Below, piece after piece: positions 13,891 to 64,000 of a stretch of DNA of 64,000 nt; the stretch's first letter is position 1, and the number at the start of each line of letters is the position of its first letter. The stretch comes from an uncultured Chloroflexia bacterium (lineage in GTDB: Bacteria; Chloroflexota; Anaerolineae; B4-G1; SLSP01), in NCBI GenBank assembly GCA_963751345.1, contig CAVVUS010000010.1, forward strand, positions 160,001 to 224,000, read 5' to 3'. A model generated the notes under the pieces. It made no database searches. It was not told the DNA's origin and saw only the letters and a program-made list of their open reading frames with translations. The translations under genes were made by a program, and so were the position numbers.

Positions 13891-15401
13891 TTACTCGCGC
13901 GGACGTAGGTGCGGGTAGAGCAAGACGTCGCGAATTGAGTGGTTATCGGTGAACAACATCGCCAGGCGGTCGATCCCCACGCCAAAGCCCCCGTTGGGGG
14001 GCATGCCGTATTTCATCGCCCGCAGGTAGTCCTCGTCCATCGGCTGGGCCTCTTGGTCTCCCGCGTCCATCTCGCGGCCCTGCTGCAGGAAGCGCTGCTC
14101 CTGCTCAAAGGGATCGTTGAGCTCGGTGAAAGCATTGCCCAGCTCTAGGCCACCGATGAACAGCTCGAAGCGCTCAACGTGTGTCGCGTCGTCAGGCTTC
14201 TGTTTGGCGAGCGGCGAGATCTCTACGGGATAGTCGTGGACGAAGGTGGGCGCGATCAGGCCTGGCTCCGCCTCTCCCGAGCAGATTGTCGACCAGGTGC
14301 CCCCAAGTGGCGTCGCCGGCAGCATCGAACCCCCGGTCGCGCATGACACCCCGCAAGTGCGTCCGCATCGGGGAAGGCCGTGTAGTCGATGCCTGTCCGC
14401 TCAAGAATAGCCTCACGCAGCGTCATGCGGCGCCAGGGAGGCGTCAGGTCGATCTCATGGCCGGCATAGGTAAGGTGTGTCGATCCGAGCGTCCGCTCCG
14501 CCGCATACGAGAGCAACTGCTCTACGGTCTCCATGACGTGGTAGAGGTCGGCGTAAGCGCAGTAGAACTCGAGTTGGGTGAACTCGGGGTTGTGCTTGTA
14601 GGAAACGCCCTCATTCCGGAAGTCGCGCCCAATCTCGTAGACCCGCTCGTACATCCCGACCAGCAGCCGCTTGAGGTAGAGCTCAAAGGAGATCCGCAGA
14701 TATAGATCCTGCTTGAGCTGGTTGTGATAGGTGGTGAAGGGACGTGCCGCAGCGCCGCCGTAGATGGGCTGGAGTACAGGTGTCTCGACCTCAAGATAGC
14801 CATGCTCATCAAGCCAGGAACGTAAGGCTGTGATCATGCGCGAACGAACTCGAAAGTCCTCGCGCACCTTCGGGTTGACTGCGAGGTCCGCATATCGCTG
14901 CCGATAGCGCTCCTCAACATCGGAGAACGCGCCAAAACGCCTGACGTTGCCTTGCTCATCCTCGACTTCTTTGGAGATGGGGAGGGGGGTGATGGCCTTG
15001 GCCAGCATACGCAGGGTCGTCGTCTGGACGCTTATCTCGCCCGACCGGGTGCGCATCATCGTGCCACCGGCTTCGATGAAATCGCCCAAGTCCACGGTGG
15101 TCTTGAAGAGCTCGTAGGGCTCCTCGCCAAGGTCGTTACGTCGGACGAACAACTGCAGCCGGCCACTGCCATCCTCGATATGGGCGAAGGTGAGTCTGCC
15201 CATATCTCGCATGCTGATGACCCTTCCCGTGACCGTTACCTGCGGAGCGGCTGTTCCGTCGGCCTCGGTGGCGTCAAACTCCTGGATGGCTTGATGGATG
15301 GTGTGTGTGCGATATGAGCGATGGGGGTAGGGTGAGATGCCGGCCGAAAGCAGCCGGTTCATCTTCTCCAGGCGTTGTTTCTCTAGATCGTTGAGCTCCA
15401 T
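13891..15401 (-). CDS. lysS: Lysine--tRNA ligase, class II; frameshift near 14350
   Basis: [21 protein letters not shown] in the first ORF; [21 protein letters not shown] in the second. Confidence 0.93.
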
Positions 15402-57678: not shown

Positions 57679-58533
57679 ATGCTGACTTTGGAGCATGTGG
57701 AGGCGTATCGCACACGGACCTATCGTATGACCGATGAACTGCGAGTCAGGTCGAAGGAGGAGGCGATCCGGTTCGTCGACGCGCGTGGATATGTGATGTT
57801 CTGGCCGATCAAGGATATCGTGATGCCGAGCCTTTGGTCTGCGGTGGCGGGCGACCGCCCCGTCGCCGACGCTCACGATGATCCCGGTCACGTGACGTGG
57901 GGCTGGAAAGACTCGCTGCTCAGCGAACGGCGTTGGTACTATGGCAAGGTTCTCCGTCGGAGGGCGACCATCATCTCGCTTGGGGTTGCCCCCCTATTCT
58001 ACGCGCTCAGCGAGAATTTCGGCTCCCCGGAGGAGGACTATCTCGACCAGTACCGCGATGGCACCATGACGGCCGAGGCGAAGAGCATCTACGAGACCCT
58101 GCTGCAGGAGGGGCCGCTCAATTCCGTGGCGCTTCGCCGTGCCGCTTCGATGGCCGGCAACTCGTCGAGTTACCGGTTCAACAAGGGATTGGACGAGCTC
58201 CAGGCAGATTTCAAGGTGCTGCCGATCGGTGTTGCGCAGGCAGGTGCGTGGAACTACGCCTTCATCTACGAATGCGTCCACCGGTACTATCCGGAGCTGC
58301 TCGAACAAGCGCGGGCGTACAAGATCAGTCAGGCCCAGCAGCGACTGCTCAAGCTCTACCTGCGCTCCGTGGGGGCTGCCACCTTTGGGGACATCGTCAA
58401 GGTCTTCTGGTGGCCCAAGCGCGAGGTCGAGAGTGCCCTGGCCGCGCTCTCCGCGGAAGGGCAGGTGGTACGGGATCTGCATATCGACGGGCAGACGGGT
58501 GAGTGGGTGTCGCTTCCCGAGCTTGCATCCTAG
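57679..58533 (+). CDS. Winged-helix YcaQ/AlkZ-like protein
   Basis: PSLW...WGWKD...YYGK and C-terminal wHTH pattern. Confidence 0.6.
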   Translation: MLTLEHVEAYRTRTYRMTDELRVRSKEEAIRFVDARGYVMFWPIKDIVMPSLWSAVAGDRPVADAHDDPGHVTWGWKDSLLSERRWYYGKVLRRRATIISLGVAPLFYALSENFGSPEEDYLDQYRDGTMTAEAKSIYETLLQEGPLNSVALRRAASMAGNSSSYRFNKGLDELQADFKVLPIGVAQAGAWNYAFIYECVHRYYPELLEQARAYKISQAQQRLLKLYLRSVGAATFGDIVKVFWWPKREVESALAALSAEGQVVRDLHIDGQTGEWVSLPELAS

Positions 58534-58560
58534 TGGTCAGCTAAACTGATTCGTGGGGAC

Positions 58561-58631
58561 TGTCATCCTGAACGAAGTGAAGGATCTATGCCTCGCAAGG
58601 GTAAGATCCTTCGCCTGCGGCTCAGGATGAC
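58561..58631. repeat. REP-like palindrome, copy 2
   Basis: 28 nt identical to copy 1 (TGTCATCCTGAACGAAGTGAAGGATCTA) plus a degenerate right arm. Confidence 0.85.
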
Positions 58632-58678
58632 GACTCTAGTCTTCAACCTAACTATCCACTAGCGGTAAGGAGCTGGTC

Positions 58679-59138
58679 ATGGATGACAAGGATGTAGTAG
58701 AGCAGGTCGAACTGCCGGCATCGGAGCCCGTTGCCGGTCGCGGACTAGAGCCCACGGAGGCGCGGACCGCGCAAGGTGAATCTCGATGCGTTGTTCGGGG
58801 CGACGGCCCTGGTATGGATGGGCGTTGTGCTTCTGGCCTCCAACTTGGGCTATCTTGGCTGGTTCACGTACCAGGGCGGAAGGCTGGCGTGGGATCTACC
58901 GTTCCGACCGGCTGCGTGGCGGCTGGTCTTCCTGGGTGTAGCGGTGATTGTCGGGGCTGAGATCGCCGTGCGTTTGCTCGTTCCCCGATATCGCCGGAAT
59001 GTCCTGGGTTACACGATCCTCGTGATTGTCTTCGTCTCGCTTGGCCTGGGCTACGTCAATGTCATCTGGCCGGCGATCCTGATCGTGCTGGGCGCCGCGT
59101 TGATGCTGCGCAGACGACGCGGTAGGTCCGAGGAGTAG
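58679..59138 (+). CDS. Small membrane protein, probably one gene with a frameshift at ~58750-58775
   Basis: AAGGAG RBS before ATG 58679; ~4 TM segments in the 58776-59138 frame. Confidence 0.55.
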
Positions 59139-59260
59139 CGGACCGACCTCGGTACTATCTGGGCGCTCTGGGCATCTATCCGGGAGAGACTATCATCATC
59201 ATTGACGGCGAAGGCGAGCCGGAACGATGAGCGCCGGACAGACGCGCCGTTTTTCGTTGC

Positions 59261-59288
59261 TTGACATCTGGCACGCTGCCCCTATAAT
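59261..59288 (+). promoter_or_regulatory. Consensus sigma70 promoter of the aspS-gatCAB operon
   Basis: TTGACA-N16-TATAAT. Confidence 0.85.
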
Positions 59289-59347
59289 CTAGGCTAATGG
59301 ACTCGGTGGCAGCGAATCGTCCAATTCTCATAGGAGGCACGTGCTCG

Positions 59348-59425
59348 ATGTTGTTGTTGAATCAGTACCAGCAGATCAACGATAACGATAATCCCGGCGT
59401 GCGCCTGTGGGAGGGTCGAGCCTAG
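59348..59425 (+). CDS. Asn/Gln/Asp-rich leader peptide MLLLNQYQQINDNDNPGVRLWEGRA (not in ORF track)
   Basis: AGGAGG at 59332-59337; 9 of codons 5-15 are N, Q or D; overlaps the antiterminator segment. Confidence 0.8.
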   Translation: MLLLNQYQQINDNDNPGVRLWEGRA

Positions 59426-59450
59426 CCGCTCAGAAACTAGCCAAGGACCC

Positions 59451-59486
59451 AAGCCACGGGCGCACGCAGGTGCTCGTGGCTTTTTT
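59451..59486 (+). terminator. Attenuator terminator 1
   Basis: AAGCCACGGGCGC-ACGCAG-GTGCTCGTGGCTT followed by TTTT. Confidence 0.85.
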
Positions 59487-59503
59487 CGTGCTTCAGTCTA
59501 GCG

Positions 59504-59539
59504 AAAGCCACGGACCGGCGTAAGAGCCCGTGGCTTTTT
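59504..59539 (+). terminator. Attenuator terminator 2
   Basis: AAAGCCACGG...CCGTGGCTTT followed by TT. Confidence 0.7.
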
Positions 59540-59571
59540 GCATAACTCGGGCACAAGAGGGGGGATGTCGA

Positions 59572-61348
59572 ATGGAGAAACGGACGCATCGATGCGGGGC
59601 CTTGCGGTCGGAGCACATCGGTCAGCACGTCACGCTGATGGGGTGGGTGCGCACGCGACGTGATCATGGTTGGCTGATCTTCCTCGATCTATGGGATCGC
59701 GAGGGCGTGACCCAGATTGTCGCCGATCCCAACGATTCCGCCGATGCCCACGCGGTGGCTGGGGACCTCAGGGATGAGTATGTCATCGCCGTAAGCGGCG
59801 TGGTGCGCGCGCGACCACAGGGCACGGAGAACCCCAGCCTGGCCACCGGAGAGATCGAGGTGGTCGCCAACGCTATCGAGATCCTGAACGCCACGACGCC
59901 GCTCCCCTTTCCCGTCGAAGATGCGCCGAAGGTGGATGAGGTGGTACGTTACCGTTACCGCTACCTGGACCTTCGGCGTGAGGCGATGCAGCGGAACTTT
60001 CGGCTCCGCCATCGCGTGGTCAAGACGCTGCGTGATTTCCTGGACACAGAGGGCTTCCTGGAGGTTGAGACGCCGGTCTTGACCCGGAGCACGCCCGAGG
60101 GTGCCCGAGACTACCTGGTGCCCAGCAGGATTCATCCCGGTGAGTTCTACGCGTTGCCGCAGTCGCCCCAGCAGATGAAACAGTTGCTGATGGTCGCCGG
60201 CGTGGACCGCTACTATCAGGTGGCGCGCTGCTTTCGCGATGAGGACCTCCGGGCCGACCGCCAGCCCGAGTTCACGCAGTTGGACCTGGAGATGAGCTTT
60301 GTCGAGCAGGAGGACGTCCTTTCCATGGTCGAGGCGATGGTCCGTGAGATCGTCGCGACGGCGGCGCCCGACCGTCCTCTGGCGACGACGCCCTTCCTCC
60401 GGCTGACCTACGACGAGGCGATGGCGCGGTACGGGACGGACAAGCCCGATCTGCGTTTCGGCATGGCCTTCGTCGACTGCTCGGCGATTCTGTCAGAGAG
60501 TGAGGTGCGGATCTTCCGGGACGTCACCGCGGGGGGCGGGGCCGTCAAGGGATTCCGCGCTTCGGGGTACGGCGCGACCTCTGCGACGGAGCTGGAGACG
60601 CTGCAGACGTTGAGCAAGGAGTTGGGCGCCCAGGGCGTGATCTGGTTCCGCGTTCGGGACGGCGGGTTGGACGCTCCTGTTGCGCGCCATCTCAGCGCCG
60701 AGGAGCAGCGGGCGCTGATCGAGGCCTTCGACGCCGGGGATGGGGACCTGCTGCTGCTGGTGGCAGGTGCCCTCGACGTCGTCAACGGCGCGCTCGACGG
60801 GCTGCGTCGGGAAATGGGTCTACGTCTGGGTCTGATCGATTCGGGAGCCCTGGCCTTCGCCTGGGTGGTTGACTTTCCCGCTCTTCAAATGGGACGCAGA
60901 CAATCACCGTTGGGATTCGGAGCACCATCCGTTTACCAGCCCGCGACCGGAGGATCTTGCGACACTTGAGTCGGATCCGGGTGGGGCACGCGCCAGTTGC
61001 TACGATCTGGTCTGTAACGGTTGGGAACTCGGGTCGGGCTCGATCAGGATCCATCAGCGGGCGCTTCAGGAACGCGTGCTCAAGTTGTTGGCTTACACGC
61101 CCGAGGAGGCAGAGGCCAGCTTTGGTCACTTGATGGAGGCCTTCGAGTATGGCGCGCCGCCGCACGGTGGGTTCGCTGTGGGCATCGATCGCCTCGTCGC
61201 GATATTGGCCGGGACTGACACGATCCGGGATGTGATTGCCTTCCCGAAAACGCGTCAAGCCACCGACCTGACGATGCGCGCGCCGGCGCCCGTCACGGCT
61301 GCCCAACTGGAGGAAATCCACATCCGGATTGCAGGACGCCGCCGTTAG
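59572..61348 (+). CDS. aspS: Aspartate--tRNA(Asp/Asn) ligase, non-discriminating type; frameshift near 60875
   Basis: RRDHG and RPQG (His/Gly residues associated with non-discriminating AspRS), [29 protein letters not shown]. Confidence 0.95.
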
Positions 61349-61423
61349 GGGACAGCCCAAAGATCAAGTTAGCTGAGCACCAACGTGGCGGGAGGAAGGG
61401 CATTTAGGGACGAGGAGGTAGAG

Positions 61424-61747
61424 ATGACAACCCCTGACGAAGGGCACGTGATCGATCAAGCGTTGGTCGAGCACGTCGCTTTCCTGATTCGACTGGCGTT
61501 GACGGATGACGAAGTGGAGACCTTTACCGAGCAGTTGAGCACGATCGTGGGGTACTTCGATCGGCTGGCCGAGGTCGATGTGACCGACGTGCCACCGTAT
61601 CGCCAAGCTCAGATGGGACGTGCACGCCTCCGTGACGACGAGGTGAGGCCTTCGATGGCCCGCGAGGACTTCCTGGCAAATGCGCCACAACAACAGGATG
61701 GGTTTGTGCGTGTTCCCGTCGTCCTGGATGTTCCTGACGAAGGCTGA
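61424..61747 (+). CDS. gatC: Asp/Glu-tRNA amidotransferase subunit C
   Basis: VEHVAFLIRL, LRDD, NAP...FVRVP. Confidence 0.9.
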   Translation: MTTPDEGHVIDQALVEHVAFLIRLALTDDEVETFTEQLSTIVGYFDRLAEVDVTDVPPYRQAQMGRARLRDDEVRPSMAREDFLANAPQQQDGFVRVPVVLDVPDEG

Positions 61748-61756
61748 GGAGGCGCC

Positions 61757-63236
<1,480 letters not shown>

Positions 63237-63240
63237 CGCC

Positions 63241-64000
63241 ATGGCGAACGACACATACGAAGTAGTCATAGGGATGGAAATCCACGCCGAGCTGCGGACG
63301 GCCTCAAAGATGTTCTGCGGCTGCCCTGTGGTCGATACGACCGTAGCCGAGCCGAATACCGCCGTCTGCCCCGTTTGCACGGGGCTGCCGGGTGCGATGC
63401 CGGTTGTCAACAAGCGTGCCGTTGAGCAGGCGATGATGGTGGGGCTGGCGCTCAACTGCCGGATCAATGAGTTCACCAGCTTCGCCCGCAAGAACTACTT
63501 CTACCCCGACCTGCCCAAGGGATACCAGATCTCACAGTACGATCATCCCATCGCGACCGACGGCTGGCTCGAGATTCGGACCGATGACGGCGAAACGGTG
63601 CGGGTTGGGATCACGCGCGCGCATCATGGAGGAGGACACGGCCAAGAGCTTCCACCACGGAGCCGGTGGGTACACGCTGATCGACTTCAACCGGTCGAGT
63701 GTGCCGCTGCTCGAGATCGTCTCAGAGCCCGACATGCATTCGGTTGCTGCGGCTCACACCTATGCGACGAAGATCCGCGAGATCCTTCGCTACCTCGGCG
63801 TCAACACGGGTGACATGGAGAAGGGGGTGCTGCGCTTCGAAGCCAACGTCTCCGTGCGCCCACGTCGGCAGCGAGATCCTCGGCACCCGGACGGAGATCA
63901 AGAATCTGAACAGCTTCCGGGCACTGGTGCGGGCATGCGAGTACGAGATCGACCGCCAGATTGACGTCGTCGAATCCGGCGGCATCGTGGCGCAGGAGAC
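63241..64000 (+). CDS. gatB: Asp/Glu-tRNA amidotransferase subunit B (3'-truncated; frameshifts near 63620 and 63865)
   Basis: [40 protein letters not shown]. Confidence 0.94.

Follow-up and report, generated by a model that had tools for sequence, protein, structure and literature searches.

How is the aspS-gatCAB operon of an uncultured Chloroflexia bacterium controlled, and which signal is read by the leader in front of it? The question is raised by a 64,000-nucleotide (nt) stretch of contig CAVVUS010000010.1 (assembly GCA_963751345.1, positions 160,001–224,000), hereafter the window, in which a 311-nt leader precedes the gene for aspartyl-tRNA synthetase (AspRS) and the gatC, gatA and gatB genes. 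Non-discriminating AspRS and GatCAB together constitute the tRNA-dependent route of asparagine synthesis. Judging from sequence comparison, the leader is likely a ribosome-mediated (leader-peptide) transcription attenuator of aspS-gatCAB, which would sense Asn-tRNA(Asn) and probably also Gln-tRNA(Gln). A low level of charged asparagine tRNA would most likely raise the expression of aspS and gatCAB.

An attenuator of this kind had been proposed in a preliminary description of the locus. Its core is upheld by a conserved upstream open reading frame (uORF) with a run of Asn codons, covarying helices, a conserved promoter and the presence of the same leader in front of asnA. The presence and conservation of the elements, the biased codon use, the mutual exclusion of the helices and their covariation are computational results. 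The genome holding the window is referred to as G000, and coordinates are window positions unless prefixed by G000.

Architecture of the leader

The leader starts with a sigma-70-type promoter, followed by a Shine-Dalgarno (SD) sequence, the uORF, the two strands of an antiterminator (regions 2 and 3) and an intrinsic terminator, T1, formed by regions 3 and 4 (Table 1). The promoter, SD sequence, uORF, antiterminator and terminator of the preliminary description were all recovered at their positions. A second hairpin at 59507–59539, T2, was absent from that account. The antiterminator core consists of 14 bp, one of them G-U, between 59397–59410 and 59454–59467. The folding stability of the 281-nt leader exceeds that of 200/200 dinucleotide shuffles (z = -3.09).

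Related leaders were located with a covariance model, R1, built on region 2 through T1. The 36 strong R1 matches were extracted as the comparison set, comprising 25 aspS-type and 11 asnA-type leaders. A TTGAYN-N16-18-TANANT site is present at a comparable distance in 34 of these 36 leaders, and a promoter scan of 1.7 kb returned 2 promoter-like sites where 0.5 were expected from shuffles.

The uORF carries an asparagine signature

The SD sequence, start codon and open frame are kept in 35/36 leaders parsed by script, with ATG as the start codon in 34 and GTG in L106. The 36th leader (L118) was parsed by eye. At least four Asn codons are found in every aspS-type leader (25/25), and three to seven in each of the ten parsed asnA-type leaders; L118, the eleventh of this type, has eight. 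In all parsed leaders, the Asn run lies just before region 2. In the 19 aspS-linked loci of the genus (the window and 18 other genomes), the Asn codons are AAT in 62 cases and AAC in 29, so the residue is kept though the nucleotides vary.

We compared the sensor residues, defined in each leader as the uORF part 5' of region 2, with the composition of 1,938 long open reading frames (ORFs) of the genome (Asn 2.25%, Gln 3.69%, Asp 6.11%); these pooled figures take no account of relatedness among the leaders. The 375 sensor residues of the 25 aspS-type loci include 116 Asn (30.9%), 55 Gln (14.7%) and 16 Asp (4.3%). For the ten parsed asnA-type loci, the corresponding counts among 174 residues are 45 Asn (25.9%), 9 Gln (5.2%) and 3 Asp (1.7%). 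The enrichment of Asn over background exceeds 10-fold in both types, with about 14-fold as the quoted value. Gln is enriched about 4-fold, and this excess is confined to leaders whose target includes gatCAB. There is no enrichment of Asp in either type.

The preliminary description had read all three residues as enriched. This holds for Asn in all parsed leaders and for Gln only in front of aspS-gatCAB. Asp had to be dropped as a signal: its share of the aspS-type sensor residues lies below the background of 6.1%, and 13/25 of these leaders are without any Asp codon.

Downstream of the Asn run, the pattern of conservation is different. The peptide encoded across region 2 differs among genera, and one locus uses another frame there. 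The C-terminal half of the peptide is conserved within the genus. Regions 2 and 3 are invariant within the genus at all codon positions, the third included, apart from a few changes. These fall on first or second codon positions, and in two loci a change of CTG to CCG turns the G-U pair of the antiterminator into G-C. The varied nucleotides with constant Asn upstream therefore indicate a coding constraint, and the invariant third positions downstream indicate a constraint on the RNA.

The leader precedes aspS or asnA, mostly in one Anaerolineae family

At the DNA level, the 311-nt leader stretch matches upstream of aspS in 18 of the 21 other genomes of the genus. The N-terminus of AspRS follows the leader in 19/19 loci, including the window (60–100% identity over 100 residues). 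Three genus members gave no DNA match: the leader of one is truncated by the end of its contig, with the T2 part visible; in another aspS is cut by a contig end; the third, G009, has a plain promoter and is genuinely without the leader. The same search found the leader in 0/19 genomes of other genera of the order. The resulting picture of a leader confined to the genus was wrong, as R1 finds it in other genera of the family.

R1 matches are present in 39/145 genomes of the order, belonging to 12/58 genera. They occur in 37/70 genomes of the window's family (G000 is not among the 70), and in 1/48 and 0/26 genomes of two other families. A class-wide sample of 151 genomes yields matches only in the 2 members of the window's family. 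A pattern scan of named public genomes returned 21 records, 18 of which are true leaders by R1; these are titled Anaerolineae, Anaerolineales, Thermoflexales or Chloroflexia metagenome-assembled genomes (MAGs). The three remaining records (Ruegeria, an Acidimicrobiaceae MAG and a Pseudomonadota MAG) have no R1 match and were set aside as chance matches of the G+C-rich pattern.

In every one of the 36 extracted loci, the element is located directly upstream of aspS (25/36) or of asnA (11/36), the latter in sister genera. The asnA gene encodes aspartate-ammonia ligase (asparagine synthetase A); its identity is supported by PF03590 matches of 336–354 bits for the 4 genes tested and by tblastn for 11/11. 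Both kinds of leader are found in one genome, G120 (L106 and L112). An either/or distribution of the asnA gene and the aspS leader was considered and ruled out, since asnA is present in 12/12 genomes of genus g20, 5 of which carry the aspS leader, and in 4/22 genomes of the window's genus. The aspS and gatCA regions of G022 and G023, from sister genera, are without this leader, and in G022 it was found in front of asnA instead. The alignment of upstream regions from relatives, suggested in the preliminary description as a check, shows that the uORF with its Asn run and the covarying pairings are conserved in several genera of the family.

Weaker R1 matches have the hairpin framework in common, their uORFs are devoid of an Asn run, and the genes behind them are unrelated (for example L119–L126 and L128). 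The framework thus seems to be reused with differing uORFs. One such weak paralogue (L081, 31.6 bits) is located in G000 itself at G000:C10:254637-254739, about 30 kb past the end of the window. It has the same layout of SD region, region 2, T1 and T2, a uORF without an Asn run, and lies before a small ORF and an acetyltransferase-like ORF. In relatives, a framework of the L081 type is found in front of RsgA-like genes. Another weak match (L082, 27 bits; G000:C7:4546-4675, minus strand) consists of two tandem U-tailed hairpins upstream of an ABC-F-type ATPase gene, named from its N-terminal sequence by eye only.

Two mutually exclusive helices covary

The 2:3 helix overlaps the 5' arm of T1, so that the two helices are mutually exclusive. 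Across the 36 leaders, 93.2% of the cells of the 14 antiterminator pairs are paired, compared to 17–64% in controls with slid columns. Five of these pairs, with 15 cells, are changed on both sides, and 0/500 shuffles reach the observed covariation score. The exchanges include UA 22 / CG 8 and GC 30 / AU 4. The 11 pairs of T1 (3:4) are formed in 92.5% of the cells; 3 pairs, with 11 cells, are changed on both sides, and again 0/500 shuffles reach the score. The alternative pairing of antiterminator and terminator, as put forward in the preliminary description, is thus supported by compensatory changes in both helices. Changes at alignment column 98, in region 3, are matched both by its region 2 partner and by its region 4 partner. 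This double covariation is expected if the region 3 strand really alternates between two helices. The 5-bp extension of the antiterminator (59413–59417 with 59446–59450) shows GC/AU/GU exchange within the genus.

Over the 19 loci, the calculated energies range from -37.3 to -46.3 kcal/mol for the antiterminator (-41.6 kcal/mol in the window) and from -15.8 to -25.5 kcal/mol for T1. In 18/19 loci, a free region 2 makes the antiterminator the minimum-free-energy state. Because a free region 2 favours 2:3 over T1, termination requires that region 2 is covered or sequestered.

A putative partner for region 2 is offered by the SD region of the uORF (region 1, 59325–59341). The 1:2 pairing is present in the minimum-free-energy fold of the whole leader, and in 32/36 loci the upstream segment that pairs best with region 2 contains an SD-like motif (mean z -2.6). 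The role of the SD region as anti-antiterminator appears less certain than the 2:3 and T1 pairings. A local hairpin at 59392–59412 had been proposed as a protector of region 2. It does fold, with -8.7 kcal/mol in the window and -5 or better in 31/36 loci. We rejected the protector role, as the hairpin is weak beside the antiterminator, its pairs are inconsistent among relatives, and the SD region is the best-conserved partner of region 2.

Ribosome position and the second terminator

To relate ribosome position to folding, we used an edge model, in which folding is restricted to RNA lying 3' of the ribosome edge, assumed to be at the first A-site nt + 12. The model rests on this assumed footprint and considers minimum free energy only; kinetics, pausing and queued ribosomes are outside it. 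The antiterminator wins with a leading edge at or before 59398, corresponding to an A site at codon 13 or earlier. T1 wins from 59400 on (codon 14 onward), also when the ribosome covers region 2 or has reached the stop codon. Read-through is therefore predicted for stalls on most Asn/Gln codons, and termination for a ribosome that passes freely.

T2 and T1 have similar arms, which makes the 3' arm of T1 complementary to the 5' arm of T2. In folds with 2:3 formed, the 4:5 pairing also forms and T2 does not. A T1-like second hairpin with a T run was detected in 19/36 leaders by a strict script and in at least 7 more by eye. Since it is missing or degenerate in some leaders, T2 is not essential. 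It may serve as a back-up terminator disarmed by a relay, an assignment that we infer from these folds.

Proposed mechanism and alternative explanations

From these elements we infer translation of the uORF, stalling and its timing, actual termination and the 4:5 relay. Transcription would start at the 59261–59288 promoter, and a ribosome would load on the leader ORF. In the terminating branch, region 2 would be covered by the ribosome, or would later re-pair with the SD region (region 1). Regions 3 and 4 could then form T1, ending the transcript near 59486, with T2 as a back-up. A ribosome stalled on the Asn/Gln codons (59360–59392) would instead block the 1:2 pairing and leave region 2 free. 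Region 2 would then pair with region 3 (14 bp + 5 bp), and T1 could not form. The freed 3' arm of T1 could engage the T2 5' arm, and RNA polymerase would continue into aspS-gatCAB.

Several observations weigh against this attenuator. The SD sequence and the ATG of the uORF are widely spaced, by 10 nt in the window and by some 11 nt in relatives. The edge model gives no antiterminator for stalls at codons 14–15, which means that part of the conserved Asn run is nearer to region 2 than the simple model wants. Folds that permit pairs spanning the stalled ribosome prefer 1:2 + T1 for stalls at codons 5 and 9. The 1:2 cells are paired at 86.7% in the 19 sequences and at 81.7% in the 36, compared to 67.8% in a control slid by two columns, which also reaches a similar covariation score. 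The covariation stems from few independent events, the sequences being related. Common descent within a single genus could account for part of the Gln excess. Gln codons are missing from two aspS-type leaders, and since the pooled figures in addition ignore relatedness, we regard the Gln signal as likely, not certain. The genus has asparaginyl- and glutaminyl-tRNA synthetases (AsnRS and GlnRS), so the need for induction is itself a conjecture. Two of the downstream frames are broken in the assembly: aspS by one extra base in a TTTCCC run (about 60876–60881) when compared with two relatives, and gatB by a frame change after about residue 128 (about position 63625) when compared with a relative. 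Both are probably homopolymer errors of the assembly rather than marks of pseudogenes, although this is unproven.

Three other explanations of the leader were considered. The leader might be a general sensor of translation or of transcription-translation coupling, responding for example to antibiotics or global starvation, with the Asn run as merely slow codons. The chassis (SD region, region 2, T1 and T2) does occur with uORFs without an Asn run before unrelated genes (G000:C10:254637-254739, L119–L126, L128), and therefore the chassis as such is not tied to asparagine. However, the Asn run is present in 35/35 parsed uORFs with aspS-gatCAB or asnA as the target and is missing where the target differs. 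With Asn about 14-fold over background, such a match between codons and target is a hallmark of amino-acid-specific attenuators, and we consider a general sensor improbable. The conserved A-rich triplet run directly beside the antiterminator strand might alternatively be bound by a TRAP- or PyrR-like protein, activated by asparagine or by a different signal, with the uORF being incidental. In L127, the AAC/AAT triplets are spaced one codon apart, resembling protein-binding triplet repeats. Yet the triplets are always in frame with the conserved SD sequence and start codon, in a frame that is open in 35/36 parsed leaders; AAT and AAC interchange as synonymous codons would, and CAG Gln codons join the run only before gatCAB. 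A candidate binding protein was neither seen nor searched for. These features make a protein-mediated attenuator very improbable.

An action in trans of the terminated leader RNA or of the 25-residue peptide, with control of aspS-gatCAB as a secondary effect, has a precedent in trpL of Sinorhizobium, for which trans functions of both the attenuator RNA and the leader peptide are reported (PMC6614838, PMC7298713). The conserved C-terminal half of the peptide within the genus would fit such a function. Across genera, however, the pairing is conserved and the C-terminal peptide is not; the conserved third positions, with substitutions at first and second positions, indicate a constraint on the RNA and not on the protein; and aspS or asnA invariably follows the element directly. 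We regard action in trans as the least probable of the three. The ribosome-mediated attenuator of aspS-gatCAB thus remains our preferred explanation.

A wider version of this attenuator, plausible but short of probable as a whole, would combine a dual sensor of both amide aminoacyl-tRNAs made by GatCAB, a re-targetable chassis and a two-terminator relay. The family would re-target by rewriting the uORF codons only, with Asn alone before asnA, Asn and Gln before aspS-gatCAB, and other peptides before unrelated genes. A separate hairpin family with a Gln/Glu-rich uORF precedes the accessory gltX. In the relay, formation of 2:3 would free strand 4, strand 4 would disarm T2 via strand 5, and a single stall would thereby open a double lock.

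Downstream genes

The leader is followed by four genes, aspS, gatC, gatA and gatB (Table 1). The ATG of aspS is at 59572, not 59573. In the seven loci checked, from three genera, aspS-gatC-gatA-gatB are colinear (7/7). No other AspRS-like match was found in G000 beyond aspS, and its product, as the sole AspRS found, is a candidate non-discriminating enzyme.

Table 1 Leader elements and downstream genes at the aspS-gatCAB locus (window positions).
Feature	Position	Strand	Description
Sigma-70-type promoter	59261–59288	+	TTGACA 59261–59266, 16-nt spacer, TATAAT 59283–59288; 12/12 match
Region 1, proposed anti-antiterminator strand	59325–59341	+	contains SD AGGAGG 59332–59337; partner of region 2
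Leader ORF (uORF)	59348–59425	+	25 codons + stop; ATG 59348, TAG 59423–59425; encodes MLLLNQYQQINDNDNPGVRLWEGRA
Regulatory codon stretch, uORF codons 5–15	59360–59392	+	4 Asn, 3 Gln, 2 Asp
Region 2, antiterminator 5' strand	59397–59417	+	core 59397–59410 and 5-nt extension 59413–59417
Region 3, antiterminator 3' strand	59446–59467	+	extension 59446–59450, core 59454–59467; doubles as T1 5' arm and loop
Intrinsic terminator T1 (regions 3:4)	59451–59488	+	stem 59451–59482, TTTTTT 59483–59488; terminator scan
Second terminator T2 (regions 5:6)	59507–59539	+	hairpin with T run, T1-like arms; read from sequence
aspS	59572–61348	+	bacterial-type AspRS with GAD domain; Pfam OB, tRNA-synt_2 and GAD over two overlapping ORFs
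gatC	61385–61747	+	longest ORF, true start may be further 3'; PF02686, 80.1 bits
gatA	61757–63265	+	PF01425 Amidase, 516 bits
gatB	63241–64000	+	runs past window end; GatB_N match split over ORFs 63241–63813 and 63467–63964

Asparagine physiology of the host

AsnRS and GlnRS are each present in 21/22 genomes of the genus. AsnA was not found in G000, a genome that is 93% complete, and is present in 4/22 genus genomes. An AsnB-like gene of G000 (G000:C23:239320-240639) is frame-broken like aspS and gatB and scores 141.9 bits, below the family cut-off; a full AsnB-type gene is found in 2/5 relatives checked. The idea that GatCAB is the sole asparagine route is therefore unsupported. The genes for tRNA-Asn(GUU) and for both tRNA(Gln) have the U1-A72 pair, which is named in PMC4206432 as required by bacterial GatCAB. 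Both GatCAB and a U1-A72 tRNA(Asn), the criteria for tRNA-dependent asparagine synthesis, are thus present.

The preliminary description had the leader reading the output of indirect aminoacylation. This is not supported: with AsnRS, GlnRS and, in some members, AsnB or AsnA as other sources of charged tRNAs, the leader does not read the indirect pathway alone. What the leader suggests is an induction of the indirect route upon a drop in charged tRNA(Asn).

Several other loci with synthetase or amidation genes were noted. In two relatives (L057 in G023 and L058 in G022), gatC-gatA are located apart from aspS under a promoter of their own. Their 5' leader contains a hairpin, ATGCGTGA...TCACGCAT, that looks conserved, and lacks any uORF with a run of Asn codons. 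Two adjoining matches to the class II Asp/Lys/Asn synthetase core are present on the minus strand of the window at 13906–15206 (G000:C10:173906-174253 and 174487-175206), and may represent another synthetase gene, possibly lysS-like, split by a frame error.

An accessory glutamyl-tRNA synthetase (GluRS) gene (TIGR00464, 434 bits) is preceded at G000:C44:54770-54969, minus strand (L059/L060), by a promoter, a uORF and a U-tailed terminator. The uORF has 23 codons and contains four Gln and one Glu within six consecutive codons. The accessory GluRS paralogue is found in 3/22 genus genomes (G000, G002 and G004), with a Gln/Glu-rich uORF in all three. This leader may act as an attenuator that responds to Gln or Glu and controls a GluRS serving tRNA(Gln). 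A Pro/Gln-rich uORF and a terminator are also located before a citrate synthase gene (TIGR01800, 486 bits) at G000:C40:25980-26054 (L077). The 3' half of the L077 leader is related to the gltX leader, and similar DNA is present in most genus genomes.

Comparison with known systems

An Rfam scan of 58500–60200 with E up to 10 gave only chance matches, H19_2 and IRES_Bip; T-box and the Rfam amino-acid leader families (His, Leu, Thr, Trp and others) had no match there. In the full-text literature covered, which lacks most subscription journals, there was no attenuator with Asn or Gln codons and no leader-peptide control of gatCAB or asnA. The terms aspS, gatC, gatA and asparagin- are absent from the main text of Naville and Gautheret 2010 (PMC2965389); a related case could still be contained in supplementary lists of predicted attenuators. 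The preliminary description knew of no leader-peptide attenuator of gatCAB, and none was found in the full-text literature covered. The mechanism itself is textbook, and so far as is known the described cases are for other amino acids; the Asn(/Gln) specificity and the aspS-gatCAB/asnA target appear to be undescribed.

Leader-peptide attenuators are classically known from the amino-acid operons trp, his, leu, thr, ilv and pheA of enterobacteria. Two amino acids are read together by the thr (Thr and Ile) and ilv leaders. A general account of such attenuators is given in PMC1183508. The present leader resembles them in its promoter-proximal short ORF, its cluster of product codons, its 2:3, 3:4 and putative 1:2 hairpins and the terminator before the first gene. 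It differs in the use of Asn codons with or without Gln, in a proposed region 1 formed by the SD region of the uORF instead of the regulatory codons, in a second T1-like terminator in many members, and in the host, an uncultured Anaerolineae lineage.

Leader-peptide attenuation of an aminoacyl-tRNA synthetase operon is known from pheST of E. coli, where the charging of the cognate tRNA is read by a ribosome on the pheM leader. The present case is alike in having a synthetase operon as the target and tRNA charging as the putative signal. It differs in the coupling of AspRS with GatCAB, and its codons correspond to the amide products and not to the synthetase's own amino acid, as Asp is not enriched.

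T-box riboswitch control of tRNA-dependent amidation genes has reportedly been described in Clostridium acetobutylicum, going by the titles of Saad et al. 2012 and 2013. By these titles, the two systems share transcription attenuation of an operon for tRNA-dependent Asn-tRNA(Asn) formation and redundant asparagine routes. T-box RNA, however, binds uncharged tRNA directly, whereas here the sensor would be a translated uORF and there is no T-box match.

PMC4206432 describes Thermus, Deinococcus and Bdellovibrio as having AsnRS, GlnRS and GatCAB together. The present lineage is similar in this combination and in the U1-A72 pair of tRNA(Asn), with a single bacterial-type AspRS in G000. That paper is concerned with enzymology and not with regulation, and some members here add an AsnB-type enzyme or AsnA, so tRNA-dependent synthesis is not necessarily the only asparagine route. 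Why GatCAB is retained in such bacteria is called an open question in the same source (PMC4206432).

If the attenuator is confirmed, it would provide a regulatory argument for keeping GatCAB as an inducible route to Asn-tRNA(Asn) beside AsnRS and GlnRS. Asn, and probably Gln, would join the amino acids that are read by ribosome stalling. An uncultured Chloroflexota lineage would use ribosome-dependent attenuators at a locus where no T-box was found (58500–60200). A single RNA switch with target-dependent codon sets would constitute a natural comparison, predicting the amino acid that is sensed by each leader.

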